Assembly (NCBI GenBank): GCA_041746255.1 | Contig: JBGTHM010000023.1 | Coordinates: 15,640-79,639 of the forward strand | Direction: 5' to 3' | DNA from: Fibrobacteria bacterium | Lineage (GTDB): Bacteria > Fibrobacterota > Fibrobacteria > UBA11236 | DNA: 64,000 bases | Shown: piece by piece, positions 48,347 through 64,000 of the stretch | Position numbering within the stretch: the stretch's first letter is position 1 | Layout: every line of letters begins with the position of its first letter | The notes under the pieces: generated by a model | Database searches by the model: none | What the model saw: only the letters and a program-made list of their open reading frames with translations | What the model was told of the DNA's origin: nothing | Translations under genes and position numbers: made by a program

Positions 48347-50020
48347 ATGAATCCAATTTTAGTCGCACTGCTTTTACTCATACCGTATCAAGCCGGAGCA
48401 GCGGCAAAGGTCACCATTGATCCTCAAGATGAGAAGTGGGTTATAAGTAAGTACCTGATCGGAATGCATGCGGTATATACCACCGAACCGGATGCCGTCT
48501 ATGAGGACGACAGTCTCGCCCACTGGGCTAAAAAAGTCGGAGTCGGGGTCTTTCGCTATCCCGGTGGAACAGTTCTGCATCATTGGAACTGGGAAAAACC
48601 AAGTGGTACCTGGTCCTGGACGGGAAGTGCGCCCGAAAAAGACTGGATGAGCCTGGATGAATACCTGCATTTTTGTAAAGTCAGCGGCGCCACTCCGCTA
48701 GTGGGAGTCAATTACAACCATTATTATCAAACCAACGAAGTCGACAGAAGCGCCACGAGCGCCGCGGGGCTGGTCAAATATGTGAAGGATGCTGGATTTC
48801 CCGGGGCGTTCTACTATATCGGAAACGAGCTGGATAGGGTCTTAGGCCCAGCACACAAGGGTTTAGGCGGTATTAAAAATGCCGGACCGGTTTTCGTGAA
48901 ACATTCCAAAGCCATGAAAGCGGTGGACCCCGATATCAAGGTTCTGTATAACTGGAATTTTGAAACGCCCGCATCGCTTAAGGAATGGATGGCTCTGGTT
49001 GGCGACGCTGCCGACGGCGTGGATTTTCATGAAAAATGGCCCGATGAAAGAACCGAAGGCAGCTATGAAATGTGGAAGAAAGAAGTCCCCTTGGTATGGA
49101 ACTACCCACCGGATAAACTGAAAAACATCGGCTTGAATAAGGCGCCTACCTGGCGCGAGAGAATCGAAATGTTAAGGAAAGCGGCGGCGGAAATTGGCCG
49201 GCCCGACATGCTGATGACCAATATCGAGTATGGAATCGGCCCGGACAATACCGGGTTCAATCGATTCACCATGAGCCTCATGTTAATCGACTACCTCCAA
49301 GAACTTTTCATTGCGGGCTATGATATGGGGTCCCATTGGTCCAATACCCGGGCGAAGTTCGATGACGGCATGCTTTTGAACGCGGGAAACAAATGGCGTA
49401 TGAATCCTGTCGGATATGGCTGGGAATTCCTCGGAAGAGCGCAGGGGAAAACCATGATCGGCTTCGAGGCCGACAATAAATTCGTATACGGGTTTGCGGC
49501 CAAGGATTCTTCCGGGGAATACCAGGTATATTTGATGAATAAAACCGAGTCCGTGCAGCCGCTCTCGCTTTCTTTCAAGGGGTCTCCGGCCGACATGGCC
49601 TCCTGGACATCCAGCGCCAAGACCCTGATGGATGGCGATGGCCACTGGGGACTGGTTAACAACCTTGACATAACCTTTAATGCGTCGACTCAATTATTTC
49701 AAGCTACGCTTCCGGCTATGTCCTATAACCAAATACTTTTCAAAAAAGAAAATTCTAGCGCCATAAATGCGTCATCCGGCCTATCACAGAGCCAAGGCGG
49801 CATATTCCTGGTGAGTAAAGCCGGGAAAATCATCATTGAGGCGCCCTCTTCCTCAAAGGTGACCCTTACGACGCTTGCGGGAAAGGTGGTCTTCGAAAAA
49901 TATCTGAAGGAGGCCGGCTCACTGGAAATCGGAAAAGAGAGCGTCGCACGGGGTTTCTACAACGTAAATGTGGTCTCGGGTAGCCAAAGCGTTTCTGAGA
50001 AATCAGTATGGATAAAATAA
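48347..50020 (+). CDS. secreted clan GH-A glycoside hydrolase (GH51/GH79-like), copy 1
   Basis: FRYPGG, YYIGNE, NIEY motifs; T9SS-like tail. Confidence 0.72.
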   Translation: MNPILVALLLLIPYQAGAAAKVTIDPQDEKWVISKYLIGMHAVYTTEPDAVYEDDSLAHWAKKVGVGVFRYPGGTVLHHWNWEKPSGTWSWTGSAPEKDWMSLDEYLHFCKVSGATPLVGVNYNHYYQTNEVDRSATSAAGLVKYVKDAGFPGAFYYIGNELDRVLGPAHKGLGGIKNAGPVFVKHSKAMKAVDPDIKVLYNWNFETPASLKEWMALVGDAADGVDFHEKWPDERTEGSYEMWKKEVPLVWNYPPDKLKNIGLNKAPTWRERIEMLRKAAAEIGRPDMLMTNIEYGIGPDNTGFNRFTMSLMLIDYLQELFIAGYDMGSHWSNTRAKFDDGMLLNAGNKWRMNPVGYGWEFLGRAQGKTMIGFEADNKFVYGFAAKDSSGEYQVYLMNKTESVQPLSLSFKGSPADMASWTSSAKTLMDGDGHWGLVNNLDITFNASTQLFQATLPAMSYNQILFKKENSSAINASSGLSQSQGGIFLVSKAGKIIIEAPSSSKVTLTTLAGKVVFEKYLKEAGSLEIGKESVARGFYNVNVVSGSQSVSEKSVWIK

Positions 50021-51009
50021 TGACTCATCCACGCAGAATAATTCCAGCCGCTACTTATAAGGACGCCGCGATTCCAGGACAAATTTTTTTGCCGATTTTA
50101 ATCGGCGCTTTCGCCTTGGTTTCGCTTTGGAATACAGGAAACGCCCAGGTACCGGTTCTGGTTCTGGATTTTAATGAACAAACCGGCGACACGGCCCGCG
50201 ACTTGAGTGGGAACGGATTCCACGGCGAACTCGCCAGCGGGGCGGAATGGAATTCCATGGGTCACTTTGACGGTGGAGTCAAATTCAACGGTAAGAACGG
50301 CTGGGTGCGGATTGTCTATGACAGTTTATTGAATCCCTCGCAGTACACGATAATGGCTTGGGTTTATTCGACTGGAAATGGAAATGATAAGGAGAGGCGC
50401 GAAATACTTGAAAATCCCGGTTCGTACTGGATGAACATCCGTCAGAAAGTAAATACCCTAAGGGTGGGCGGGTTTTTCGGAAAAAATAGCGAGTGGGTTT
50501 ATGTGGATTCCAAAGAAGCCATCCCCAATAACAAGTGGACCCATACGGCCTCCACCTGCGATGGAACAAGATTGCGCAGCTATATAAACGGGGTGCTGGC
50601 GGCGGATACGGCCATACCCGGAGAACTTGGCGTCAAATTCGCCCGCGATTTATTCGTTGGTCTAAAGAAAGACGAAATTGCCAAATATAACGGCGCCTGG
50701 TTCGAAGGAACCATCGATGACGTGCGGGTTTATTCCGGAGCCATGACGCAAGCTCAAATCCAGGCGGCCATGAAAACTCCCTTTCAGTTGACCAGCGCCC
50801 TCAAGTATCCGGCAAATAGGCTCAAAGAAGGGAACCGGATGGGCATATTCCCGCCCAATTCGAATGGACTATTTGATGCTATGGGTAGGACTAGCGGGCC
50901 AGGGATCGGCCGCCAGGCCTACCAGCAGGAATATGGGGTATTTTATAGGTTACCGGAACAACCCGTCCAACCCAAGAACAGCTCTGCAAATGTTTTGGAT
51001 GGATTTTGA
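50020..51009 (+). CDS. secreted LamG/concanavalin-like domain protein
   Basis: DLSGNG.HG, YTIMAWV, WTHTA, YING, FEGTIDDVRVY. Confidence 0.85.
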   Translation: MTHPRRIIPAATYKDAAIPGQIFLPILIGAFALVSLWNTGNAQVPVLVLDFNEQTGDTARDLSGNGFHGELASGAEWNSMGHFDGGVKFNGKNGWVRIVYDSLLNPSQYTIMAWVYSTGNGNDKERREILENPGSYWMNIRQKVNTLRVGGFFGKNSEWVYVDSKEAIPNNKWTHTASTCDGTRLRSYINGVLAADTAIPGELGVKFARDLFVGLKKDEIAKYNGAWFEGTIDDVRVYSGAMTQAQIQAAMKTPFQLTSALKYPANRLKEGNRMGIFPPNSNGLFDAMGRTSGPGIGRQAYQQEYGVFYRLPEQPVQPKNSSANVLDGF

Positions 51010-51058
51010 AATGGATTTTTCCAATCCCTAGGCTTAACCCGTTCCAAAGAGAAAAATC

Positions 51059-52702
51059 ATGAAACTGACATTGCTTGCCCTATCATTGATTTTCTCGTCT
51101 CAAGCTTATGCGGCGGTGAATGTCAAGATCGATCCGAAAAACGAGAAATGGACCATCAGTAAATACCTGATTGGAATGCATGCCGTGTATTCCACCGAGC
51201 CGGATGTAGTCTATAAAGGCGACAGCTTGGCACGTTGGGCGAAAAAAGTGGGCGTCGGAGTTTTTCGCTATCCCGGCGGTACGATCTTGCACCATTGGAA
51301 TTGGGAAAAGCCAAGCGGTCTATGGCAATGGGACGGAAATGCGCCGGAAGAGAACTGGATGAGCCTGGATGAGTACCTGCATTTTTGCAAGGTCAGCGGC
51401 GCGACTCCCCTGGTAGGCGTCAATTACAACCATTATTACCCGGACAGCGTCGACTATAGCGCGGCTAGCGCCGCACGGCTGGTCAAGTATGTAAAAGACA
51501 AAGGTTTTCCCGGCGCCTTTTATTACATCGGAAACGAAATGGACCGGCATGTTTACCTGAAAGGGATAGGTAATTCCGCACGAGTATTCAGACAGCATTC
51601 GCTGGCTATGAAAAAGGTGGATCCGGCCATCAAGGTCCTTTACAACTGGAATTTCGAAACCGCCAGCACTCTGAAAAGATTTATGGAAATCGCCGGTGAC
51701 GCCGCCGATGGCGTGGATTTTCATGAAAAATGGCCCGATGAAAGGACTCCGGGAAGTTATGAAATGTGGAAGAAAGAAGTTCCGTTGATATGGCACTTTG
51801 CCAATGGAGGTCATAATAACCCGACCTGGAGGGAGAGAATTCAGATTTTACGGCAAGCGGCTAAGGAAATTGGCCGTCCCGACATGCTCATGGCCAATAT
51901 CGAATACGGTATCGCTCCGGAAAGTTCCGAAGGATTCAATCGGTTCACCATGAGCTTGATGTTGATCGATTATCTTCAGGAGTTATTCATCGCCAACTAC
52001 GATTTGGGCGCCCATTGGTCCAACACCCGAGCCAAATACGACGACGGCATGCTCATGAACGCGGGAAATAAATGGCGTATGAATCCGGTCGGTTTCGGCT
52101 GGGAATTTCTCGGCAGGGCCCAGGGAAAAACCATGATCGGTTTCGAGTCCGACAATAAATTCGTTTACGGGTTTGCGGCCAAGGACGCAACCGACGAATT
52201 CCAGCTCTACTTGATCAATAAAACAGAATCGCCTCAGCCGCTCACCATTTCTTTCCAGAATGCTCCGGCAGACATCGCTACATGGACCTCCGGCGCCAAA
52301 ACCCTGGTAGACGGCGATAATCACTGGGGCGTGGTCAACAGCCTGAACATATCCTATGATGCCGCGAAAGGAGTTTTCCAAGCCACTATTCCACCGATTT
52401 CTTATAACCAAATTCTATTTAACAAGAGCGGCGCCACCGCAATCGAAACCTCGGCACCCCCGCTAAAAAGTTATGGTGGCTTATCGGTGGTAAAAAACGC
52501 CGGTAAAATATTAATCCATGGCGCTCCCGCTTCCCAGGTTACCGTAACTTCACTTTCCGGCCAAGTCGTTTTTCAGAAACGACTGGAAAAATCCGGGACT
52601 TTGGAATTAGGAAAAGAGAGCCTTGGGCATGGGGTATTTACCGTAAGCGTTGTCTCCGGCGAGCATAGCGTCTCCGAGAAAATCGTATTGCAGGAAAATT
52701 GA
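51059..52702 (+). CDS. secreted clan GH-A glycoside hydrolase, copy 2
   Basis: Long peptide blocks identical to 48347..50020. Confidence 0.72.
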   Translation: MKLTLLALSLIFSSQAYAAVNVKIDPKNEKWTISKYLIGMHAVYSTEPDVVYKGDSLARWAKKVGVGVFRYPGGTILHHWNWEKPSGLWQWDGNAPEENWMSLDEYLHFCKVSGATPLVGVNYNHYYPDSVDYSAASAARLVKYVKDKGFPGAFYYIGNEMDRHVYLKGIGNSARVFRQHSLAMKKVDPAIKVLYNWNFETASTLKRFMEIAGDAADGVDFHEKWPDERTPGSYEMWKKEVPLIWHFANGGHNNPTWRERIQILRQAAKEIGRPDMLMANIEYGIAPESSEGFNRFTMSLMLIDYLQELFIANYDLGAHWSNTRAKYDDGMLMNAGNKWRMNPVGFGWEFLGRAQGKTMIGFESDNKFVYGFAAKDATDEFQLYLINKTESPQPLTISFQNAPADIATWTSGAKTLVDGDNHWGVVNSLNISYDAAKGVFQATIPPISYNQILFNKSGATAIETSAPPLKSYGGLSVVKNAGKILIHGAPASQVTVTSLSGQVVFQKRLEKSGTLELGKESLGHGVFTVSVVSGEHSVSEKIVLQEN

Positions 52703-52712
52703 GGAGGCCGCA

Positions 52713-53714
52713 TTGAAAACCTTGTATTCACTGGTAATTCTCATGATGGCCGCTCCGTCATGGTCAGCCCAGGTCTTATACCTGGATTTCGAAGACGGAT
52801 CAGGTACGGTGGTTACCGACCGGGAAGGAAAAACCAACGGAACCCTCAAGGGAAAGGGCGCCGCATCATCCTGGGTAGAAGGGAAGAACGGGAAGGCGGT
52901 GAGGTTCTCCGGCGACAATTACGTAGAGGTTCCTTATAAATTCCCGGACAACGGATCCGTGGCGCTGTGGTTCAAACCCGACAGCCTCTATAATTACAAC
53001 ACCGTCTTCGATAATTCCGTCCATGAAAATCGCTGGGAGATGTGGATTCAGGGAGAAGTTCCTCCGGGAAATCCCAGCTGGTATGAGTGCCCGCATTGCG
53101 TGAAGTTCCGCACGGGGCAGGACAGTAAGGGAAAGACCGGATACGATCTCTACAACCTGGGAACGAAACAACAAGTGACGGAGATGTGGATACACTTCGC
53201 CGCAACCTGGACAAGCTCCGGAGAGAGCAAGTTGTACGTAAACGGAACTCTCCGCGATACCCAAAATTCACCGGACTTCCAGTCGGCAGGAAACATGATT
53301 TTTTTGGGCGCCAATAAGAATCCAGTTCCGATTTCTTCAGCCCCTAGCGGCAACCCCCGGGCCAGAGGCAGCATGGACGAATTCCGTATTTTCGATTCGG
53401 TGCTGTCCGCATCCGAAATTCAAGCTCTTTATGCCAATTCCACCACGGCGGCACTCGAATCGGCCGACAAATTAACCGGCGTCTCCGAAAGGTTTGCCAT
53501 CTCGCGTCGGGGAGAAACGCTGTCCATCGAGTCCTTCGACCACCCCATCACCTCAATTACCCTTACCGATCTACAAGGACGCCAAGTTGGATCGTATAAG
53601 GGCCTATCTTCCCAATCCTTCCTGATAACGCTCCCATCAATGCATAAACCACTGGCGGTTAAAGTAGAGACCGGCTACGCTTCAAAAGGAGTCAAGATAG
53701 CCCCAGTCCGATGA
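52713..53714 (+). CDS. secreted LamG domain protein with T9SS-like tail
   Basis: TTG start after GAGGAGG; LDFEDGSG, SVALWFK, WIHFAATW, LYVNG, MDEFRIF; LTDLQGR. Confidence 0.85.
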   Translation: MKTLYSLVILMMAAPSWSAQVLYLDFEDGSGTVVTDREGKTNGTLKGKGAASSWVEGKNGKAVRFSGDNYVEVPYKFPDNGSVALWFKPDSLYNYNTVFDNSVHENRWEMWIQGEVPPGNPSWYECPHCVKFRTGQDSKGKTGYDLYNLGTKQQVTEMWIHFAATWTSSGESKLYVNGTLRDTQNSPDFQSAGNMIFLGANKNPVPISSAPSGNPRARGSMDEFRIFDSVLSASEIQALYANSTTAALESADKLTGVSERFAISRRGETLSIESFDHPITSITLTDLQGRQVGSYKGLSSQSFLITLPSMHKPLAVKVETGYASKGVKIAPVR

Positions 53715-53762
53715 CGGCTGGAACGGCGGCATGCCGGCTACGTCGAGAAAAGTTTTGCATTT

Positions 53763-53784
53763 TAATGATACTGTATTATCTTTA
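53763..53784 (+). promoter_or_regulatory. palindromic operator (motif B, copy 1; candidate Zur box)
   Basis: TAATGATA-CTGTAT-TATCTTTA, preceded by TTGCAT. Confidence 0.65.
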
Positions 53785-53827
53785 TCCTTTAATTCCTGGT
53801 TAAACCTTTTCTATACAGGGGGAAACA

Positions 53828-55915
53828 ATGCAAAACGAAAGTCCTAATTTCCGAAACAGCCGTAAAGGCCCGACGCAACTCCATGCGAAAGGCGGGTGGG
53901 CCGACAAGGCCAGACCGAGCGCATACTTCGTCGCGTTAGCGATAATACTTTTTGCTGCCCCGCCGGCGACGGCCAAGGAATCCGAATGGCAGTGGTTGAA
54001 CCGGGATCCCCGCTCCACGTCCTTTCAACAGGTGCATATTTACGACAAGGACACCTGGTATTTCACCATGCGCAAAGGCCAGATACTGGAAACCAAAGAC
54101 GCCGGGAAAAACTGGTTTATTCAGACCCTCCCCACGCGATCCGATATTTGGGGCATCGATTTCGTCTCCGAAAATATCGGCTTCGCTTCGGGTGCCGATG
54201 GCCTTATTTTCACTACCGCAGACGGGGGTAAGGCCTGGAAACAAGTCTTTAAAGCCGATGATGTCTTCAGCTTTTACGGATTCGCAGCCCTGAATGCCAA
54301 TACCATTTTGGCGGGTGGCGGCGATGACGACAGCACGGTTATTGTCCGCAGTGCCGATGGCGGCACGACTTGGTCACGAGTTTCCCATCCCAGACTTCGC
54401 TGGGGACTCAACCATATCGTCCACGCCGGCGGAGATACCGTCTTCGCAAGCGGTTCGACTGGCATATTGCGTTCACTCGATGCCGGCGCGACCTGGACGC
54501 TTTCGGTTGCCGCCGACTCCGTCTTGAACTTAAGAAACATCCATGAAATGACTTTCGTCGATAGCCGCATAGGTTATGCCACGGGAGACGGTACCCATAT
54601 CATCAAGACCGTAAATGCCGGTGAAACTTGGCAGAAATTCGCGGTGAATTGCGAAGGATGCTCTGCCAGCCGGAATATATTGGCGCTGGACTTCCTGAAT
54701 GCCAACGAAGGGTGGGTTCTCGGGTCCTTTCCCCTCATGGGCGCGCGCACCAAAGACGGCGGGTCCACCTGGGAAAAACTTCCCATGACGGATGTAAGAG
54801 CAACGTGGGCGCAAACCATAGCCATGACCGATTCCAAGAAAGGCATGCTCCTGGCCAATTCGGTTTATTACCTCACGGAAGATGGCGGTGAAACCTGGAC
54901 AAACGGAATCAAAGGATTCGATAACCATATCGAAGATATGCATTTCGTCGATTCGACTTCCGGTTGGCTGGTCGGTTCGGGCGGAGGAATTCAAAATACC
55001 AAGGACGGCGGTAAAACGTGGAAAGCGCAAAAATCCGATGTTACCGCGGGTCTTCGTTCCGTTTACTTTCGGGATGCGGCAAATGGCGCGGCGGTAGGGC
55101 TGGGCGGGACCTTGCTCCTTTCCGAAAACGGCGGCGAGACTTGGAGCAAAATCGAAACCGGCGTGGACAATGATTTGATGAGCGTCCAAGCATGCGGAGA
55201 AGGTCAATGGTTGGCTGTCGGAGCATCCGGTCAAGTCCTCAAACGCAAGGCGAGTGACCTGGATAAATCCAATCCCTACTCTTTCGGATTGAATTCCGTG
55301 ACCTGTCATGGCGCCCAGGCTTGGGTCGCGGGTGATAGCGGCAATATCATCCATTCGAGTAACGGCGGAACGGATTGGAAAAAGCTGGAATCGGGCGTGC
55401 TATTCGATATTTTCCGCATTCAATTCGTCGACAGCCTACACGGATTCGCGGCCGGAGAAAGCGACATGCTGCTGGCCACAACCGATGGCGGAGACAAATG
55501 GGAACAAATTCCCCTGCAATTCCTCGAATATCAGGTTTCCGGAATGCATTTCGTAGACCGTGATAACGGATGGATCTCACCGGATTACAGCGGCTCGATT
55601 TACCGGACCCGGGATGGCGGAAAGAATTGGAATCGAATCGAGCCCGATGACATGACCAGCCAGGTCCCTGCCATCTTTTTCTTGGATACGGCATTGGGTT
55701 TTGTCGGCGGCGTGGGCGGCATTCTTAAAAAATATGACGCTCGCTCCGGAATCATCGCCTCCATCGGGCCCCGAGCCCAAGGTCGATGGCATGGACCTTC
55801 GGAAAATAACAATGCGCTTAAAGTTGACGCATTGGGAAGGCGCTTGCCCATCGGCTCAGGCGCCAACGATCGACGGTTACCGCTCAGAATATTCCGTTTC
55901 ATCGAAAACAAATAA
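53828..55915 (+). CDS. secreted YCF48/BNR-repeat double beta-propeller protein
   Basis: About 11 (S/T)xDGGxxW Asp-boxes; VDALGR tail. Confidence 0.88.
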   Translation: MQNESPNFRNSRKGPTQLHAKGGWADKARPSAYFVALAIILFAAPPATAKESEWQWLNRDPRSTSFQQVHIYDKDTWYFTMRKGQILETKDAGKNWFIQTLPTRSDIWGIDFVSENIGFASGADGLIFTTADGGKAWKQVFKADDVFSFYGFAALNANTILAGGGDDDSTVIVRSADGGTTWSRVSHPRLRWGLNHIVHAGGDTVFASGSTGILRSLDAGATWTLSVAADSVLNLRNIHEMTFVDSRIGYATGDGTHIIKTVNAGETWQKFAVNCEGCSASRNILALDFLNANEGWVLGSFPLMGARTKDGGSTWEKLPMTDVRATWAQTIAMTDSKKGMLLANSVYYLTEDGGETWTNGIKGFDNHIEDMHFVDSTSGWLVGSGGGIQNTKDGGKTWKAQKSDVTAGLRSVYFRDAANGAAVGLGGTLLLSENGGETWSKIETGVDNDLMSVQACGEGQWLAVGASGQVLKRKASDLDKSNPYSFGLNSVTCHGAQAWVAGDSGNIIHSSNGGTDWKKLESGVLFDIFRIQFVDSLHGFAAGESDMLLATTDGGDKWEQIPLQFLEYQVSGMHFVDRDNGWISPDYSGSIYRTRDGGKNWNRIEPDDMTSQVPAIFFLDTALGFVGGVGGILKKYDARSGIIASIGPRAQGRWHGPSENNNALKVDALGRRLPIGSGANDRRLPLRIFRFIENK

Positions 55916-55942
55916 AGGTTTGCCTAAAACAGGAGAGAGCTT

Positions 55943-56800
55943 ATGAAAAAGGTGTTCGGGATTTATATCGGTTTACTCTGCATATTCAGTTCGTCGGTAT
56001 TTTCTTTGGACACCTTACGGCTCTTTCCGGGCGGTTCCGATTTGGAGCTACGCAAATATGCGGAATCGGACCGATGGGGATATGTCGCCGGTCATAATTA
56101 TGCCTACCGGCAACAGTTTGCGCAGAAATATTTCCACAGCGGCGTGGCCTTTATCGATGAAATCGAATTTTCCCTGGGCGGCGTTTTCGCCAATCCCAAG
56201 AATCGCATCGAAGTGGCCGTATTTCAGGTTAGGCCCGATGGACTTCCGGGAAACAAACTCGGCGGCCGGGAAATATTTTATGAAGACCTGGAATTAAACG
56301 GCGGCCTGACCCGAGTGGCGCTGCCTACGAAAGTCCAAATCTCGGATTCGTTTTTCGTCAGCGTTAATTTTAAAGACTATGCCCATGGAGGCTACGAAGG
56401 CGATACCTTGGGGGTAAAGTCCTGCCTGGAAGGTTGCCGCGACAGCCTTGACCTCTCCGTTTTCGGACGCATCGCCGTGCAAAGGCATAAACATGGCGAT
56501 ATAGACTGGCGGGATTTCTTCACGCAAAATTCGACCCCATTCCGGATTTACCTGGCCATCTATCCCCTATTGGAAAAAGATCCCACCTCCGTCTCCCTTG
56601 CGGGCCATCAGGGCATAAGCAGTAAAGGTGCGTTTCCGGCGCCGCAAAACCTTGCCGTTTATCTCTCCCAACCCGCATTCCGCCTGAAGCATTTGCCGAA
56701 CCTTTTGATAGGGCGCGAAACACCCGAGTTCAATGATTTTCGTAACCGGCAAGCGCTAAGGGCGGGACAACGGCTGCAAGGCGGAAATTCCCATCCGTGA
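55943..56800 (+). CDS. secreted hypothetical protein
   Basis: AGGAG RBS, signal peptide, His-containing motifs (GHN, YAHGG, RHKHG). Confidence 0.75.
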   Translation: MKKVFGIYIGLLCIFSSSVFSLDTLRLFPGGSDLELRKYAESDRWGYVAGHNYAYRQQFAQKYFHSGVAFIDEIEFSLGGVFANPKNRIEVAVFQVRPDGLPGNKLGGREIFYEDLELNGGLTRVALPTKVQISDSFFVSVNFKDYAHGGYEGDTLGVKSCLEGCRDSLDLSVFGRIAVQRHKHGDIDWRDFFTQNSTPFRIYLAIYPLLEKDPTSVSLAGHQGISSKGAFPAPQNLAVYLSQPAFRLKHLPNLLIGRETPEFNDFRNRQALRAGQRLQGGNSHP

Positions 56801-57276
56801 TGCCCTCATTCACCTCCGTATGCAAAGGGGTTTCACTGGTATTGGCTTCTGCCGTGTTGTGGCATTGCGATTTCAGTAAAAATATTCACGAACCCATCCC
56901 CGGCGAAAAGCATGCTTGCTTGCATGCGGCTAAACCCAAACCCGCTATGGCGTCGATTAATTTCGCCTCCGCTCCCTTGGTGGGTTTCCTACATGTCTAT
57001 TACCGAATCGGACTGCCTTCCGGCAAGGAATCGTGGGTACGGATCGAGATTGAGGAAACGGGTAAATATTCCCTCTATTTACATGCCACATTTCCCTGGA
57101 CGCTGCTCGATTCCGGTGGTGCTCCCCAGACTCCCCTCACTCACACACGAAATCTCAAGGCATGTGTGCGAATCAAGGAAGTACACCAATTCTCCTTGGA
57201 CGAGGGAACCTACTATTTGCGTATTGACCCGACCTCAATGCCTGAAATTGGCATGCTTCTGGAAGAAAGCGATTGA
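56797..57276 (+). CDS. hypothetical lipoprotein with HACxH motif
   Basis: GTGA overlap; VLWH|C; EKHACLHA. Confidence 0.7.
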   Translation: MMPSFTSVCKGVSLVLASAVLWHCDFSKNIHEPIPGEKHACLHAAKPKPAMASINFASAPLVGFLHVYYRIGLPSGKESWVRIEIEETGKYSLYLHATFPWTLLDSGGAPQTPLTHTRNLKACVRIKEVHQFSLDEGTYYLRIDPTSMPEIGMLLEESD

Positions 57277-57378: not shown

Positions 57379-58476
57379 ATGACCAAATACATTTATCAGT
57401 ATGACCAATGGCCCAATCTCAAATGGGATGATCAAGAAATTCAAGTGATTCTAGGCAAAGTCCGTCATTTCCAAGGAAAAATTTCCGGCCAGATGGAGGC
57501 TATGGGATTTTCCCAAAAAGAGGAAACTATGCTTTCCACCTTAACTCTTGATGTCCTTAAATCGTCCGAAATTGAAGGTGAGATATTAAACCAAGAGCAG
57601 GTTCGCTCTTCCATTGCGAGACGATTAGGATTGGATTTCGCCGGGATGGTCAGCGCTGATAGAAGCGTGGAAGGCGTTGTTGAAATGATGCTGGATGCGA
57701 CGCAAAGGTACAACCAACCTCTCGAACATGAGCGGATATTCGGATGGCACGCGGCATTATTTCCCACCGGCTGGAGTGGTATGCACAGGATTGGGACTGG
57801 TCGTTATCGCAATGGCGATATGCAAATAGTTTCCGGGCCAATGGGGAGCGAGAAAGTCCATTACCAGGCTCCACCTCCTGAAATTGTCAAACAGGAAATG
57901 GATGTTTTTTTGGATTGGTTAAACGGGGAAACCAGGACGGATGCAGTATTAAAAGCGGCTATCGCCCACTTTTGGTTCATTATTATCCATCCTTTTGAGG
58001 ACGGCAATGGACGCATTGCAAGAGCGATATCCGATATGTTACTTGCGCGCTCAGAGGAGAGTTCCCAAAGATTTTACAGCCTATCAAATCAAATATTGAC
58101 GGAGAAAAAGATATACTACGAAATTCTACAAAGAGTCCAACATAGCAAGGGTGACATAACCGAATGGTTGGTTTGGTTCCTGAACTGTTTATATCGGGCC
58201 CTGGCTTCAACTGAGGAGACCTTAAATAAAGTCCTGTATAAGGCGGAATTTTGGGATAAACACAGAGAAACCATTTTAAACGGTAGACAACGATTGATGC
58301 TGAACAAAATGTTGGATGGATTTGATGGAAATCTGCAATCTTCAAAATGGGCGAAAATAACGAAGTGTTCCGTAGATACCGCGCTAAGGGATATTAAGGA
58401 TTTGATCGAAAAGGGAGTTTTGCAACAAAAAGAATCCGGGGGAAGAAGTACAAATTATGAATTGACTGGAAAATGA
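57379..58476 (+). CDS. Fic-family protein with N-terminal DUF4172 and C-terminal HTH
   Basis: SSEIEGE inhibitory motif; HPFEDGNGRIAR; DTALRDI...GGRSTNY. Confidence 0.95.
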   Translation: MTKYIYQYDQWPNLKWDDQEIQVILGKVRHFQGKISGQMEAMGFSQKEETMLSTLTLDVLKSSEIEGEILNQEQVRSSIARRLGLDFAGMVSADRSVEGVVEMMLDATQRYNQPLEHERIFGWHAALFPTGWSGMHRIGTGRYRNGDMQIVSGPMGSEKVHYQAPPPEIVKQEMDVFLDWLNGETRTDAVLKAAIAHFWFIIIHPFEDGNGRIARAISDMLLARSEESSQRFYSLSNQILTEKKIYYEILQRVQHSKGDITEWLVWFLNCLYRALASTEETLNKVLYKAEFWDKHRETILNGRQRLMLNKMLDGFDGNLQSSKWAKITKCSVDTALRDIKDLIEKGVLQQKESGGRSTNYELTGK

Positions 58477-58668: not shown

Positions 58669-59928
58669 ATGAAAAAGCTTCCCGTAACCGTACTCTCCGG
58701 CTTTTTGGGCGCCGGCAAAACCACCCTGCTCAACCACGTGCTCAGCAATCGCGAGGGCTTGCGCGTCGCGGTCATCGTGAACGACATGAGCGAAGTGAAT
58801 ATCGACGCCGAACTGGTCAAAAGCGGCGACGGCGCGTTGAGCCGCTCCGAGGAAAAGCTGGTGGAAATGAGCAATGGCTGCATTTGCTGCACCTTGCGCG
58901 AAGACTTGCTCATCGAAGTCTCGAAACTCGCCAAGGAAGGTCGCTTCGATTATCTGCTTATCGAATCGACGGGAATATCCGAGCCGATGCCGGTAGCGGA
59001 AACCTTCACCTTCGCGGACGAAGCGGGGAAAAGCCTTTCCGACGTGGCGAAGCTGGATGCCATGGTGACGGTGGTTGACGCCGTGGCCTTTCTACTCGAA
59101 TACGAAAACAGCGACAGCCTACAGGAAAGGTCCATGGCTCTCGGCGAAGACGACGACCGGACCATCGCCGATCTCTTAATCGACCAAATTGAATTCGCGG
59201 ATATTCTGGTGCTCAACAAATTGGATATGGTTTCGGAAGCGGCGAAAAACAAACTCACGGCCATCTTTAAATCCTTAAACCCCCAGGCCAAGGTATTGGA
59301 GTCCACCTACGGGCGGGTTCCGCTCCAGGAAATTCTCGACACCGGCCTTTTCAGCATGGAGAAAGCGGCGCGCGCCCCTGGCTGGTTGGCGGAGTTGCGT
59401 GGCGAACATATTCCCGAAAGCGAGGAATACGGCATCCGCAGTTTCGTCTACCGCGCCAAAAGGCCTTTCCATCCCGAACGTTATTGGGATTTAATGCATG
59501 AGGGATGGGACCAGGTGTTACGCTCCAAAGGTTTTTTCTGGCTGGCGACGCGCATGGACATCACCGGCTTGTGGTCGCAGGCGGGAGGCTCGGCTCAATA
59601 CCGGGCCAACGGTTATTGGTGGGCGGTATTGGACGAAGCCAATTGGCCCGAAGACGAAGCCACGCGAGCCAACATCCGTAAGCTCATCGGCGGTGAGTTC
59701 GGAGACCGCCGCCAGGAGATGGTTTTCATCGGCGTAAACATGGACGAGACGGGCATTCGCGCCGACTTGGACAAGTGTCTGCTGACGGATGAGGAAATGG
59801 CGCTGGGTGAAGAGGGGTGGAGCGGGTTTTCGGATCCGTTTCCAGCCTGGGAGGAGGAAATTGAGGAGGAGTTGGATGAAGAAATGGAGGAGGAAATAAT
59901 TGAAAGCTCTCCAATGAGCGCGGGGTAA
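58669..59928 (+). CDS. COG0523 (CobW/YciC/ZigA-type) zinc metallochaperone GTPase
   Basis: [15 protein letters not shown] (CxCC), [22 protein letters not shown]; acidic tail. Confidence 0.95.
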
Positions 59929-60713
59929 CAGCAGTTAGCCATACCCTTACTCAAAATAGAACCTTCATTACTGCCTAAAAAAACAAACCAATCTTTTGCT
60001 GCGCAAAAAAACAGGTCGGTCGGGCGAAACCGTTTTTACGGAAAAGGCGATATATTGGGACATGATCCAGAACAGCCATTGTTCCCCATTTTCTCTACAT
60101 CCGACTGTTAAGAGTAGGGATGTAACCAGTATATATCCTAGGCCTGCTGCATCCGCAAGTTCCTGGAAAAAGTATGCATAGAAAGACGGATAAATGTATG
60201 CATTTCAGGGATTGCATTCCACCCATCCACATACGTAAATCCAAGCTAGGCGGACGTTAAGGAGAGTTTAATTCAATCCCAACAAAACAACTTCGAGGTT
60301 TATATGGAGTGCACGGCTCCGCCATCCATTTCCGGGCACCAACAGACATAGCCCCCTCAAATCGTGATTTCAAGTAAATGGTACCGTATCCTGGATGAAA
60401 CTGGGCTCAAAAAAGGGGGAAAAACCAAAAATTGAAGGTTAGGCGGTTCTCTGGTTTCAGGCGGGGGTTAATTACCTTTTGTGATCTATGGCGAAATTTT
60501 GTGCGTCTTTGATGCCAAAGGACGAACAAATCTACGCCATAGATCTAGTTGAACAAAGCCGCTACGCGGCAGTTTATCGTGCCAACTGTCCCACTTTGGC
60601 TCTTTTAATCAATGCCTTTTGGCTGAAATAGCCATCCTCTATTCGAAGCTATTTTCCGAATAACCCGAATCAGTTAAAATTTTCTGTTCACCTTCACCAC
60701 AAGGAGAACAGAC

Positions 60714-61586
60714 ATGACACTCTTAAGACAGCAATTCACTCAAGCGCTGGAGCTCCGTGGCTTCTCGCCCCATACCATTAATAATTATATCCTCGCTGTT
60801 GCCCGCCTCAGCCGGCGCTATGGAAAATCACCTGATACGATCAGTGACCAAGAAGTTCGCGAGCACATCCTCCACCTGAAATCCGAAGGTATCTCCGCAG
60901 CCACTTGCAACTTGCATATGGCGGCCATCAAGTCATTTTTCAAATCATGCCTTCCGGAGCGGCCCAATCCAGTTGGCCTCACCAGCATGAAAGCTCCCAA
61001 GCACCTGCCGGTTGTGCTGAGCTTGGATGAAACCATCCGCCTACTCACCTGCGCGGTCAATCCTAAACACCGGGCGCTTTTGAGCATCATCTACTCGGCC
61101 GGGCTCAGGCTGAGCGAAGCCATACATCTACGACCCGCCGATATTGATAGTCACCGGATGCGCATCCATGTCCGGGAGGGTAAGGGTGGAAAGGATAGGT
61201 ACACGCTGCTTGCCGGACCCGTGCTGGAGACGCTTCGGGAGTATTACCGCTGCTACCGGCCCGAAACCTGGTTGTTCGAAGGACGACACCGGGGCATGCC
61301 GATGAGTCCGCGCAACGTGGATGCGACGCTCAAACGCTGCGCCAGGCGCGCCCGCTTGGGCAAGCGGGTAACGGTGCACACGCTTCGGCACAGCTTCGCT
61401 ACCCATCTTCTGGAAGCCGGGCAGCCTCTGCAGGTTATACAAAGTCTGCTGGGCCACCGGAACATTAAGACGACCACTATCTACACGCACGTGACCGACA
61501 GGATGATGGCGGACCTGCGGAGCCCCCTGGAAGCTTTCACCCTTACCCCGAATCGTGCTAAGGAACAGGGGGCCGAGCATGACTGA
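60714..61586 (+). CDS. tyrosine recombinase/integrase with SAM-like N-terminal domain
   Basis: Complete catalytic set: GLRLSE, GKGGKDR, HTLRH, LGH, TTIYTH; AAGGAG RBS. Confidence 0.95.
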   Translation: MTLLRQQFTQALELRGFSPHTINNYILAVARLSRRYGKSPDTISDQEVREHILHLKSEGISAATCNLHMAAIKSFFKSCLPERPNPVGLTSMKAPKHLPVVLSLDETIRLLTCAVNPKHRALLSIIYSAGLRLSEAIHLRPADIDSHRMRIHVREGKGGKDRYTLLAGPVLETLREYYRCYRPETWLFEGRHRGMPMSPRNVDATLKRCARRARLGKRVTVHTLRHSFATHLLEAGQPLQVIQSLLGHRNIKTTTIYTHVTDRMMADLRSPLEAFTLTPNRAKEQGAEHD

Positions 61587-62805
61587 GAAGATTGCGGAAA
61601 GGAAACGTGGATTGGAAGTGGCGGAAGTCTTCTCGAGGGGCATGGCAGCCTATGCCAAAAACCACGGACCGCTTCCTCCCGCACATTGGAAGGTGGTGAA
61701 CGCCCTGGAACGCTGCCGCACGGCCGCAATGGGCGGGCACTCCTACAAGTGCGGGAACTGCGATTACGAAAAACAAGTCTACAACTCCTGCCGCAACCGG
61801 CACTGCCCCAAGTGCCAGGGATTGGCCCGGCTCAAGTGGGTGCAGGCAAGGATGGAGGAACTCCTGCCCGTAGAATATTTCCACGTAGTGTTAACCATGC
61901 CGGCCGAGCTCAACGCATTCGCCCTTCGAAACAAGGCGGCGTTCTACGACCTGCTTCAAAAAAGCGTGGCGGATACGCTTCTTTCATTATCGCGCGATCC
62001 GAAGCGCTTGGGTGCGGAGATAGGTTTCATCTCCGTACTGCACACCTGGGGTCAGAACATGATGGACCATCCGCACGTCCACTGCATCGTTCCCGCAGGC
62101 GGCTTGGAGGACGGCGTTCGATGGAAATCCCTCAAGGGCAAGTTTCTATTTCCGTTCAAAGTGATGTCATCGCTGTTCAAGGGCAAAATGTTAAGCGGGT
62201 TCAAACGGGCTGTGGAAAAAGGCGATATCCGCTTCCACGGCCACCTCGAGCAATACACCGACCCGGCACGGTGGAAGGCATATCTCGACGGCTTGTATGC
62301 GAAGAACTGGGTCGCCTACTGCAAGCCACCTTTCGCCGGGGCCGGTCAGGTCCTCAAATACCTAGGCGGTTACACGCACCGCATGGCCATCTCTAACCAC
62401 CGCATTGTCTCCATCGACGAAAACACCGTCCGTTTCAGATGGCGCAGCTATGCCGACGGTGGAAAGACCAAGGTGATGACGCTCGCGCATAAGGAATTCA
62501 TCCGGCGCTTCTTGTTGCATGTACTGCCTAAGGGATTTCAGCGCATCCGGTACTATGGATTCCTTGCCAACTGCAAGCGGAAAAAGGCATTGGGACGCTG
62601 CCGTGAAATCTTGTCTGCCAAGGTAAAGGATCCCGCTCCTGAAAAGGACATGTCCTCCGAAAAAGCCGGACAATGCGATCTTGTTAGCCTGTTCAAGAGT
62701 GTGTTCCACATCGACCTCACTTTTTGTCCAAAGTGCCGTAACAGGACGGTAAGCCCGACCTTCCCTCCGGCTCATGTACGTTACTCAAGAGGTGTTTTCA
62801 GGTGA
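61579..62805 (+). CDS. IS91-family rolling-circle transposase (HUH, Y2)
   Basis: Zn domain CRT...C..C...YNSCRNRHCPKC; LHTWG; HPHVH (HUH); YLGGY (YxxxY); RIRYYGFL; overlaps the integrase stop by 8 nt. Confidence 0.95.
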   Translation: MTEKIAERKRGLEVAEVFSRGMAAYAKNHGPLPPAHWKVVNALERCRTAAMGGHSYKCGNCDYEKQVYNSCRNRHCPKCQGLARLKWVQARMEELLPVEYFHVVLTMPAELNAFALRNKAAFYDLLQKSVADTLLSLSRDPKRLGAEIGFISVLHTWGQNMMDHPHVHCIVPAGGLEDGVRWKSLKGKFLFPFKVMSSLFKGKMLSGFKRAVEKGDIRFHGHLEQYTDPARWKAYLDGLYAKNWVAYCKPPFAGAGQVLKYLGGYTHRMAISNHRIVSIDENTVRFRWRSYADGGKTKVMTLAHKEFIRRFLLHVLPKGFQRIRYYGFLANCKRKKALGRCREILSAKVKDPAPEKDMSSEKAGQCDLVSLFKSVFHIDLTFCPKCRNRTVSPTFPPAHVRYSRGVFR

Positions 62806-63192
62806 GATGATTACTGTCCATGTATGCCAGAACGGGTCCCAAGCTAAAGGGAGGTTTCCATCCTATGCTTGATGGGCTGGAAATGCCATTTTTAAGTGAT
62901 TTTTTAATATTTTTCACAAGATATGAAACGGTCATTTAACCTAATATTCGTGTTTATCCGTCTACAGCCAGGCATCCGCAACGGCCAAAGCCCTCGATCA
63001 AACCCCATAGGGCGGCACCTCACCCCCGCGGCTTCGTTCAACTAAATTATTTCTACAATGCGGCACCAGAAGCGCCTATTTTTGAGCCTGTGGCAGGCAT
63101 TGCAGAAATAATCCTTAACGTTATGCAATGCTTGAGCCAATTTATCAGAATGCGCGCCTAAAACAGAAATCAAAAACTAAATTCAAAATACC

Positions 63193-63696
63193 ATGAATAT
63201 CCAATCTGAAAACTTAACTGATGGAACTATTCAATTAATCCCTCTTAGGGAACAGGATTTTGATGCTCTTTTTTCAGTCGCCTCCGATCCTCTAATTTGG
63301 GAACAGCATCCGAACAGCAACCGGTATCTGAAGGAAGAATTCTTGAAATTCTTCCAAGGGGCGATTGAATCCAAGGGTGCATTCAAAATAATTGACTGCA
63401 AAACTCAGGAGCCCTTGGGCTCAAGTCGGTATTACGATGTAGATATGCAGGAAAAGTCAGTCTTCATTGGATACACTTTCCTTCGGAGGGACAAATGGGG
63501 AGGAAACTACAATGCTCGTTTAAAGGCATTGATGATAAACCATGCCTTTCAATTTGTGAACAAGACCTATTTCCAAATTGCGACTACCAATATGAGATCT
63601 CTTCGGGGCACTGAGAAAATAGGGGCAACAATAGTCGGTACCCAAATTCTTGAAGGAATCGAGCATTTTGTTTTGGAAATGCAAAAGGAAAATTAA
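63193..63696 (+). CDS. GNAT (RimJ/RimL-like) N-acetyltransferase, cassette-like
   Basis: LIPL...DPLIW...IGYTFL...N.RS...EKIGA; visibly more AT-rich than flanking core genes. Confidence 0.88.
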   Translation: MNIQSENLTDGTIQLIPLREQDFDALFSVASDPLIWEQHPNSNRYLKEEFLKFFQGAIESKGAFKIIDCKTQEPLGSSRYYDVDMQEKSVFIGYTFLRRDKWGGNYNARLKALMINHAFQFVNKTYFQIATTNMRSLRGTEKIGATIVGTQILEGIEHFVLEMQKEN

Positions 63697-63736
63697 TACG
63701 GCGCGCTTAAAAATAATTGTGGAGGGCTCAAGCACA

Positions 63737-63988
63737 GCTTACAACAACGCACAGGGTGCTCCGCACGGGACAAGCCCGTGCTCCGGGGCTTCGCCCAAAT
63801 TGGTTTTGGGGTAAGCCCGGCAATTCAAAGGGCATCCTCACGGCGCCCGCTAAGGCGGGCTTGTTCCGGTGCTCCTTTTCATTGCGTGTTGCGGGCGAGC
63901 ATTCTGGGGGTCAAAGACCCCACTCCATGCTCGTCCTCACACATCGGGCTAACCCCAAAACCAACTTCACCCTCCGCTGACGTTATAC
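63737..63988 (+). repeat. about 250-nt branched palindromic attC-like site
   Basis: TACAAC...GTTATAC outer boxes, AGGGTG/CACCCT inner boxes, 20-bp stem 63800-63819/63945-63964, several internal hairpins. Confidence 0.7.
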
Positions 63989-64000
63989 AACATGCTGCCT

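Follow-up and report, generated by a model that had tools for sequence, protein, structure and literature searches.

Whether a recombinase gene and a transposase gene standing directly 5' of cassette-like DNA constitute a new kind of integron, or a mobile element lying beside a cassette, is the question raised by the right-hand end of the window, by which we mean the whole 64,000-nt stretch of a Fibrobacteria bacterium genome, from a hot-spring metagenome, that was analysed. The preliminary description had favoured a non-canonical integron, and had offered as its alternative an element that targets cassette sites. We conclude, with a probability of roughly 0.85, that positions 60548–63122 are a single IS91-family insertion sequence, intact and present in one copy, which carries an integrase gene and lies exactly at the 5' edge of a GNAT cassette from an ordinary integron. 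On that reading the result is mostly corrective: a known kind of insertion sequence sits at a cassette edge in a genome with a normal integron, and the locus is not a new kind of integron.

The insertion sequence and its two genes

The ATG of tnpA and the stop codon of the integrase gene overlap by 8 nt, and the preliminary description was right that the catalytic residues of both are intact. In the recombinase, translation and alignment place the catalytic residues in GLRLSE (R), GKGGKDR (K), HTLRHSFATH (H and R) and LLGHRN...TTIYTHV (H and Y), while the translated transposase contains HPHVH (the HUH motif) and YLGGYTHR (two tyrosines). With a Y2_Tnp domain (PF04986, 214 bits), the HUH motif, two catalytic tyrosines and an N-terminal zinc-binding domain (PF14319, 107.8 bits), the predicted protein is an IS91-family transposase.

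The recombinase is Xer/IntI-like and differs from IntI on two counts. As the preliminary description had recognised, it lacks the insertion between the KDR and HxxR motifs, ~40 aa in length, that the genome's own IntI shows in the same alignment. The intI model TIGR02249 gave the weak result that had been expected, matching in two pieces (99.6 and 92 bits, positions 178–236 missing) that fall below its cut-off. A quick tree places the protein outside the IntI/Xer branch, with 97% SH-aLRT support for the branch, and makes the window element a distant member of its subgroup, on a long branch. That subgroup of the IS91 family is marked by a tyrosine recombinase gene directly 5' of the Y2 HUH transposase gene; here the ~290-aa recombinase is encoded on the same strand as tnpA, directly 5' of it and inside the element ends. 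We conclude that the integrase belongs to the insertion sequence and does not serve to capture cassettes. The literature searched yielded no description of the integrase's role in this widespread subgroup, just a passing remark, on ISShvi3.

From left to right the element consists of GTT, left repeat, int, tnpA, right repeat, a 70-nt hairpin of its own with a tail, and GTT (Table 1). The left repeat pairs as an inverted repeat with 63028–63042, and its motif is also found 5' of the integrase in relatives. To judge from this layout, the right repeat with the 70-nt hairpin 3' of tnpA, and the left repeat with its small palindrome, would be ends of the IS91 type. The direct repeat that flanks the window copy, GTT, is only 3 nt long. 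By blastn the element matches only itself in the genome, in which there is a single transposase match (n = 1). Contigs of run X1, possibly the source data of the assembly, cover the element and its flanks at a depth of ~10x, and these assembled contigs contain no circle and no empty-site junction.

The 70 nt of the left flank fold at −20.6 kcal/mol (z −7.5), and the imperfect hairpin there lies outside the insertion sequence and is probably a structure of the target side. Nothing related to it occurs elsewhere in the genome, nor does it belong to the attC family; to the left of the element there is no attC of the family type, and no AAC box precedes the hairpin.

Table 1. Features of the insertion sequence, its left flank and the adjoining cassette (window positions)
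Feature	Position	Strand	Details
Imperfect hairpin, left flank	60483..60545	.	11-bp perfect outer stem; stops 2 nt short of left GTT
Left GTT triplet	60548..60550	+	copy at both element ends; probable counterpart of terIS-side cleavage/target nucleotides of IS91-type elements
Left inverted repeat (terIS-like end)	60551..60572	+	starts GAACAAAGCCGC, then small palindrome
Tyrosine recombinase gene	60714..61586	+	290 aa; PF00589, 126.5 bits; SAM-like N-domains
IS91-family Y2 HUH transposase gene, tnpA	61579..62805	+	ATG 61579 (or GTG 61555); PF04986 Y2_Tnp, PF14319 Zn_Tnp_IS91
Right inverted repeat	63028..63042	+	ends GTTCAAC
Element-owned hairpin and tail (oriIS-like end)	63043..63119	+	stem arms 63047–63061 and 63097–63111; tail TCCTTAAC
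Right GTT	63120..63122	+	putative target triplet beside oriIS-like end; also 5' boundary of GNAT cassette
GNAT acetyltransferase cassette gene	63193..63696	+	167 aa; PF13302, 51.7 bits
attC, long (~250 nt) type of host family	63739..63988	+	43 nt past GNAT stop codon
attC boxes		+	R'' ends AAC 63743–63745; L CAGGGTG 63752–63758, CACCCT 63968–63973; R' GTTATAC 63982–63988

The GNAT cassette and the integron of its genome

The GTT at 63120, the AT-rich GNAT gene (GC 0.405, against 0.526 for the whole window), the large AAC...GTT site and the GTT at 63982 are all where the preliminary description had put them. The large site is, on sequence grounds, an attC: it is conserved as a structure and forms the 3' end of a cassette, and it is branched and unusually long. 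It folds with a z of −7.7 on the plus strand and −8.8 on the minus strand, none of 200 shuffles folding as well. Among 12 aligned copies the AAC is invariant (12/12) and CGTT stands in the 3' register in 10, with compensatory changes in 52 of the 76 predicted pairs. The start of the cassette (63116–63144) pairs with 63720–63748, the region at the attC R'' box, at −15.5 kcal/mol, a value reached by 0/440 control windows and 0/500 shuffles. Simple 9-mer complementarity between R'' and R' is only 5/9 for the GNAT unit, and the single line of support for the 5' boundary of this cassette is the extended pairing, with a bulge. Two cassettes on contig C31 have starts complementary to their own attC R'' at 9/9 and 8/9 positions.

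What lies 5' of the cassette on its contig (C23) is non-array chromosome, with a CobW-type gene, so that the cassette gives the impression of opening an attC cluster that has no integrase close by, and it may have been integrated at a secondary GTT site next to a hairpin. Excerpts of an earlier study describe both attC clusters split from intI by rearrangement and cassettes inserted at secondary sites (PMC4889954). The end of the window, position 64000, is the end of the contig; with this end only 12 nt past the attC, we infer the array beyond it from other contigs.

The attC family has 12 members in this genome, on several contigs, and on C31 five copies lie on one strand, between ORFs. The genome also encodes a canonical IntI (G000:C56:27174–28109), which scores 371 bits against TIGR02249 (cut-off 265) and has the IntI-specific insertion in alignment. 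Genome-wide there are thus both an IntI with its insertion and co-oriented cassettes between attC sites, and the ordinary chromosomal integron system of which the GNAT cassette and its 250-nt attC are part has its integrase on C56. The 250-nt repeat occurs in 16 of 32 genomes of the host family; 12 of the 16 have IntI, three (G000, G031, G004) have any IS91 transposase at E ≤ 1e-20, and IntI and attC stand together on one contig at G030:C7 and G029:C262. Standard integron finders limit attC length to near 200 nt; where they do, arrays with such 250-nt sites may be missed.

Relatives of the gene pair and their neighbourhoods

Integrase and transposase genes occur as a pair in 63 of the 66 related loci with enough upstream DNA (here, as in the other counts across relatives, related lineages are taken in, so that the loci are not independent). 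A ~290-aa integrase is encoded directly 5' in 5/5 plasmid loci retrieved, from rhizobia, Roseobacteraceae and Caballeronia. The window transposase is 45–53% identical to those of 80 metagenome loci and 46–50% identical to the plasmid copies, as against just 33% for a classical-type IS91 transposase in the related genome G004. Gene order, sizes and ends are common to the window element and its plasmid relatives, and the inverted repeats are likewise shared with relatives. The NCBI pipeline labels the pair 'site-specific integrase' and 'IS91 family transposase', and ISfinder names for IS91-family members with an upstream integrase are ISAzo26, ISShvi3, ISSod25 and ISWz1.

At 26/28 loci the 105 nt that follow the right repeat are structured (z < −2.5), and identity between the Mesorhizobium plasmid copies extends through the right hairpin. 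The 4 nt that precede GAAC recur after the right hairpin in 17/28 loci (permuted mean 7.4, maximum 15), and a 5-nt terminal direct repeat is present in 10/28 (permuted 2.4). The same architecture occurs with terminal repeats other than GTT, namely GACTT, CGTTT, GACAA and ATT, and the five retrieved plasmid regions carrying the pair contain no annotated integron integrase or attC.

Of the two readings in the preliminary description the evidence favours the second, an element that targets cassette sites, with incomplete support. Besides the window copy, which stands where a cassette begins and is separated from a strong hairpin by 2 nt and a GTT, three relatives speak for it. The left end of L019 adjoins a host-family attC, in reverse complement, and meets it precisely at the R'' box; the element is opposite in orientation to this attC, and is at R'', not R'. 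Beyond the right end of L099 come GTTAGAC, a 134-aa ORF and then a sequence opening with the exact complement GTCTAAC, and the right flank of L062, an ORF and then a short hairpin ending GTTAGGG, was read by eye as a cassette. Exclusive targeting, however, is not what the flanks suggest: a z below −2.5 is reached by just 8 of the 44 left flanks, and by 2 of 44 controls, even if five flanks and no control have z < −4. A complementary R'' 7-mer was found in one of the five GTT-type relatives with at least 500 nt of right flank.

Routes to the cassette boundary and known systems

According to excerpts of work on the IS91 family (PMC13181058), the two ends of its members, oriIS and terIS, are distinct and carry subterminal palindromes; the elements produce no target duplication and have a target tetranucleotide (GTTC, CTTG or GTCC) beside oriIS; GTTC occurs at the terIS cleavage site in three of them, and a single-stranded circle is the functional intermediate. 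By analogy, the likeliest course is that TnpA of the window element would nick at the GTT beside the oriIS-like right end, displace one strand as far as the left end and circularise it. The circle would then insert at another GTT-type site in single-stranded DNA, and attC sites and other hairpins may expose such sites.

A bolder proposal, to which we would give well under even odds, is that integrase-carrying IS91 elements are self-mobilising mimics of cassettes. A circle made by the HUH enzyme in rolling-circle excision would fold at its joined ends like an attC, the two terminal repeats acting as R boxes and the element hairpin as L boxes, and would be recombined with the GTT/AAC boxes of attC sites or similar hairpins by the element's own Xer/IntI-like recombinase, not by TnpA alone, or by the host IntI; the element would then be a specialist of hairpin recombination sites. 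The joined ends of the window copy do fold as one long imperfect hairpin (z −5.4 on the plus strand, −6.9 on the minus strand), in which the two repeats form an R-box-like stem, and the termini GTTGAAC and GTTCAAC fit the attC consensus of R' GTTRRRY and R'' RYYYAAC. The positions of L019, L099, L062 and the window copy, and the five most structured left flanks, are what such homing would produce. The low share of structured left flanks and the solitary complementary 7-mer argue against it, as do the non-GTT repeats, the plasmid regions without annotated integron integrase or attC, and the window's left hairpin, which is not recognisable as an attC. Moreover, according to excerpts of PMC13181058, IS91 itself needs nothing but TnpA to insert the single-stranded circle at its tetranucleotide, so that GTT targeting can be explained without a recombinase. 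If true, mimicry would mean that folded single strands are recombined outside integrons too, as a second and independent use, and would explain the elements at cassette boundaries, the window copy being one such event. The idea is testable, in that joined ends bring the terminal repeats and the element hairpin into one fold, and some copies lie at an attC box or a cassette start.

It is considerably less likely that the element travels as a passive cassette, the host IntI treating the element hairpin as an attC and moving a 2.57-kb unit (TTGAAC...hairpin...G) between G/TT sites. Such a unit would have G/TT at both boundaries and an AAC...stem...GTT hairpin at its end, as is seen, and the genome encodes IntI. 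In 9 of 11 GTT-type relatives a loose scan marks the hairpin as attC-like, but it is unspecific, with many matches inside genes too; the hairpin does not resemble the 250-nt attC of the host, relatives lie on plasmids with no annotated integron integrase in the retrieved regions, and the orientation and R'' position of L019 do not fit.

We think it very improbable that the junction of CobW region, insertion sequence and cassette is an artefact, produced by chimeric assembly of this metagenome-derived genome. The assembly consists of 130 contigs, C23 stops inside repeated DNA, and the DNA 3' of the CobW gene differs in a genome of the same genus (G001), but independent Logan contigs of run X1 overlap across 59800–61808, 61791–62251 and 62225–63769 at an even depth of 9.6–10.8, in what is possibly the assembly's own source run. 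Least tenable of all is the non-canonical integron first proposed, in which the recombinase and an HUH nuclease making single strands would capture or shuffle downstream cassettes: the pair does stand directly 5' of the cassette in the same orientation, and a second recombinase without the IntI insertion (C18:48722–49942, 40.6% identical) is also 5' of a cassette and attC, but in the quick tree the latter groups with IntI and Xer, apart from the IS91-linked recombinases; C56 encodes the canonical IntI that the preliminary description had itself named as counting against its reading; the repeat supposedly tied to the pair occurs without it in 13 of the 16 attC-positive genomes; and the pair, described as the head of a cassette array, has transposon ends of its own and is mostly found without cassettes.

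The insertion sequence that we favour resembles the IS91 family (IS91, IS801, IS1294, IS1294b and ISCR relatives) in its Y2 HUH transposase with a zinc-binding N-domain, its two differing ends, the structured right end 3' of tnpA and, probably, the same short sequence at the left terminus and beside the right end, with no long target duplication seen. The stop codon of its upstream gene overlaps the tnpA start, as does that of orf121 in IS91 (PMC13181058, in excerpt). It differs in that this gene encodes a 290-aa tyrosine recombinase and is not orf121, in that its termini form a clear 15-nt inverted repeat, and in a terminal repeat of GTT, not GTTC or CTTG. From other integrase-carrying IS91 members it is set apart by its distance, by its origin in a hot-spring metagenome and by its place at an integron cassette boundary. 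Excerpts of PMC9229058 name the IS1111-attC group and the group IIC-attC introns as attC invaders; the window element is like these in lying at a defined box of a hairpin recombination site in a cassette array, but it has an HUH enzyme and a tyrosine recombinase, an attC-like end of its own, and targeting that is not exclusive. Insertion sequences are present in a quarter of complete integrons (PMC4889954, in excerpt). Like integrons and attC clusters with no integrase close by (CALIN), the locus has a cassette, composed of the GNAT gene and its attC, in a genome with IntI. The attC, at ~250 nt, is branched and covarying and exceeds the usual 57–141 nt. Unlike the integrase of those systems, the recombinase beside it belongs to a transposon and has no IntI insertion.

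Recombinase and transposase genes as one insertion sequence

As an observation, the preliminary description of the right end of the window was right in every particular when checked by ORF calling, Pfam and folding. The genes (see table), the catalytic motifs legible in the translations of both recombinase and transposase, the GTT triplets at 63120 and 63982, the strong structure of the AAC...GTT stretch (z -7.7 and -8.8) and the GC content of the GNAT gene (0.405, against 0.526 for the whole window) were all re-found as stated. The recombinase and transposase genes overlap by 8 nt. The contig, C23, terminates at window position 64000; one 580-nt Logan contig of sequencing run X1, possibly the source data of the assembly, extends ∼518 nt further.

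Features of the window's right end and related features elsewhere (window positions unless a contig is named; G000, the source genome; G004, a genome of the same family)
Feature	Position	Match or remark
Seven co-oriented genes	48347-57276	
Fic/DUF4172 gene	57379-58476	
Left flank hairpin	60483-60545	63 nt, z -7.5
Insertion sequence, GTT to GTT	60548-60550 to 63120-63122	2572 bp with one GTT counted
Tyrosine recombinase, 290 aa	60714-61586	PF00589, 126.5 bits
IS91-type transposase	start 61579 or 61555, end 62805	PF04986, 214 bits; PF14319, 107.8 bits
GNAT acetyltransferase, 167 aa	63193-63696	PF13302
attC of GNAT unit	63739-63988	AAC...GTT
IntI	G000:C56:27174-28109	TIGR02249, 371 bits
C18 tyrosine recombinase, 406 aa	G000:C18:48722-49942	
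AAA-ATPase gene and CobW-like fragment	G000:C31:5964-7350	
MENIIQINQ element	G000: C56:29088-29227, C57 end, C18:51360-51498, C37:1-63, C47:1-140, C106:1-116	
L020, IS91-type transposase gene	G004:C17:1654-2979	33% identical to window's
IntI near L020	G004:C17:4583-5512	

The recombinase and transposase genes are one insertion sequence. Matches to the transposase occur on 3785 plasmid records, and all five plasmid loci that were fetched carry a ∼290-aa integrase directly upstream (47–50% identity). A metagenome scan with the transposase gave 80 loci at 45–53% identity; of the 66 related loci whose sequence extends 900 nt or more upstream of this gene, 63 have an integrase there on the same strand. 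Comparison of relatives defines a left inverted repeat beginning GAAC.AA.CCGC and a right repeat ending in GTTC plus a few bases, followed on its 3' side by a hairpin of 70–95 nt and then a short tail; in 26 of 28 loci the 105-nt stretch past that repeat is structured (z < -2.5). Between the several copies on a Mesorhizobium plasmid, identity begins exactly at the left repeat and continues through the right hairpin and ∼20 nt further, so the hairpin is part of the element and the DNA left of the left repeat is not. In 17 of 28 loci the tail ends with the same 4 nt that precede the left GAAC (permuted counts averaged 7.4, with a maximum of 15 in 500), and a 5-nt version holds in 10 of 28 (permuted mean 2.4, maximum 8).

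The window's element is single-copy, and a scan of genome contigs with the transposase returned one locus. Because its ends map to the two GTT triplets, the GTT at 63120, previously described as a junction, is the right end of the insertion sequence. In three metagenome loci (L049, L098 and L111), a common ∼70-nt sequence left of the integrase takes the place of the normal left repeat terminus, which may reflect a common truncation or a nested insertion.

The attC of the host family and its integrase

The ∼250-nt repeat is the attC of the host bacterial family. Iterated nhmmer searches found 12 members in the genome, five of which lie on one strand of contig C31 (13 kb), in the gaps between ORFs whose GC content varies. 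Two cassettes on this contig begin with 9 nt that match the complement of the R'' region in the attC of the same cassette, at 9/9 and 8/9 positions. Among 12 full-length copies from five genomes, the 5' AAC is invariant, the 3' CGTT is present in 10, and compensatory changes affect 52 of 76 predicted base pairs. The window's attC and its 11 relatives in the genome share a three-way branched interior with several conserved unpaired motifs, and one G-T pair is retained in 10 of the 12. Typical attC sites are far smaller than those of this family. A search of 60300-64000 against Rfam, the repeat included, returned no match at E ≤ 1.

The preliminary description had tentatively tied the repeat to the recombinase–transposase pair, a tie that its distribution contradicts. 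Within the bacterial family, 16 of 32 genomes hold the repeat and 17 an IntI over the cut-off (12 both, four the repeat only, five IntI only and 11 neither); these tallies take in G021, an unpublished genome, and are not independent where genomes are related. Repeat and IntI share a contig in two same-family genomes (G030:C7 and G029:C262), and an IS91 transposase (E ≤ 1e-20) is found in only three of the 16 repeat-holding genomes. The repeat thus goes with IntI and not with the gene pair.

Likewise, the proposal of a non-canonical integron fails, as the genome has a canonical IntI: a whole-genome search with TIGR02249 gave one match over the curated cut-off of 265 bits, on contig C56, and this protein holds the ∼40-aa insertion typical of IntI. 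Alignment with it confirmed that the window's recombinase is without the insertion, as previously noted, and the weak profile result then expected was obtained, with two sub-cut-off pieces and model positions 178–236 missing. A quick maximum-likelihood tree was built from 72 recombinases; the ORFs of two rows, IntI_L154 and L101, are mis-called and have very long branches. A branch supported at 97% (SH-aLRT) separates the C18 recombinase, six IntI rows and both Xer-like proteins of the genome from the window's protein, which falls among IS91-linked recombinases on a long unresolved branch adjoining that of L019, a related locus.

The C18 recombinase, likewise without the IntI insertion, is 40.6% identical to the window's. 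It is preceded by a gene that we read as JetD-like and followed by hairpins, a 174-aa ORF and a long attC, all on the same strand; no IS91 end motif was found upstream of it. A multi-copy element is also present in the genome; its left end starts with GATAACGTA, and MENIIQINQ opens its first ORF. The assembly is broken by this element at six contig ends. Two long attC copies, one on C18 and the other on C37, are interrupted by it at the same relative position, and on C56 it lies ∼650 nt downstream of the intI start. One of these contigs, C47 (4.6 kb), holds by eye a group II intron-type reverse transcriptase ORF, a Dcm-type methyltransferase, a Vsr-like gene and an HNH gene.

The insertion site of the window's copy

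The GNAT unit behaves as a cassette. Its attC begins 43 nt past the stop codon, and the 25 nt that open the unit (63116-63144) pair with the R'' region of that attC (63720-63748) at -15.5 kcal/mol, a value that neither the 440 control windows nor the 500 shuffles reached; in an ungapped 9-mer complement test the match is only 5/9. Since the start of the cassette pairs with its own R'' region, the element abuts the 5' boundary of the GNAT cassette. We read the unit, from sequence, as the putative opening cassette of an attC cluster that has no integrase close by.

On the left, an nhmmer search found no attC of the host family type. A hairpin ends 2 nt before the GTT; to its left are 550 nt without ORFs, preceded by a CobW-type gene. 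This gene is 82% identical in a same-genus genome, G001, where the DNA that follows differs, and a search there for the empty site found only the CobW gene and an attC match, with no counterpart of the flank 59930-60547. A circle or empty-site joint was absent from the assembled contigs of three runs, which are uninformative either way. A secondary GTT site beside the hairpin may have received the GNAT cassette, and the insertion sequence may have arrived later at the same GTT; integration of cassettes at secondary sites is a route named in PMC4889954. A left flank that is not attC would also be explained by one-ended transposition carrying foreign terIS-side DNA, or by rearrangement.

In G001, the DNA directly 3' of CobW matches both flanks of the AAA-ATPase gene on C31, the cassette-array contig, which suggests that the CobW locus and the array have recombined in the past. 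On C31, a fragment similar to the N-terminus of the CobW-type gene comes after the ATPase gene. Farther left in the window, the block of seven co-oriented genes (two Laminin_G_3 proteins, one BNR/YCF48-like and four without a Pfam match) is absent from G001, where the conserved flanking pieces lie farther apart; a Fic/DUF4172 gene follows the block.

Target choice and comparison with IS91

The alternative that the element targets cassette sites is supported in part. In L019, from same-family genome G031 (transposase identity 47%), the left repeat directly adjoins a reverse-complemented attC of the host family, exactly at the R'' box of that site. In L099, a metagenome locus, GTTAGAC follows the right end; next come a 134-aa ORF and the exact complement GTCTAAC, which starts a palindromic region; the right flank of L062 holds, by eye only, a 135-aa ORF and then a short hairpin ending GTTAGGG. 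When joined, the ends of the window's element form one long imperfect hairpin in which the terminal repeats are paired (z -5.4 and -6.9). Against a general rule, structure at z < -2.5 is seen in only 8 of 44 left flanks versus 2 of 44 controls (at z < -4, five versus none), so that a hairpin beside every copy was rejected, and only one of five GTT-type relatives whose right flank is long enough has the complementary R'' 7-mer. Element lineages with other terminal repeats occur on plasmids, and five fetched plasmid regions hold no annotated integron integrase or attC. A home-made AAC...stem...GTT scanner for calling arrays was too loose, matching inside genes, and was abandoned. By eye only, some rhizobial target sites may resemble dif-like sites.

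The L019 and L099 junctions and the fold of the joined ends would be accommodated by a mechanism in which the recombinase drives insertion and the element mimics attC. We consider this less likely, given the flank, R'' and plasmid data, and given that IS91 TnpA alone is able to place the circle at its tetranucleotide, according to PMC13181058. Because the targeting evidence is mixed and TnpA alone suffices in IS91, we hold to TnpA-driven insertion, which would take place at GTT-type sites exposed in hairpins.

L020, an IS91-type transposase gene with no integrase upstream, lies near an IntI. On its 5' side is an attC-like GCATAAC...GTTATAC and on its 3' side a 180-aa ORF and then another GTATAAC start, so that it appears to occupy a cassette position close to IntI; no recognizable IS ends were found around it.

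In conclusion, the window holds no new kind of integron. The element belongs to a known kind of insertion sequence, of which it is a new and distant member, and it is positioned at the boundary of a cassette in a canonical integron system; the question that it raises is what its recombinase does. Neither a role for the integrase in IS91 elements nor a target rule was found described in the literature searched, in which a remark on ISShvi3, in PMC9229058, was the sole relevant text on integrase-carrying IS91 elements. According to PMC13181058, IS91-family elements have distinct oriIS and terIS ends with subterminal palindromes, a single-stranded circle as functional intermediate, and a target tetranucleotide that adjoins oriIS without target duplication; in IS801, IS1294 and IS1294b the same tetranucleotide is found at the terIS cleavage site. 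The distinct ends of the pair fit this pattern, and its short terminal repeats appear to.
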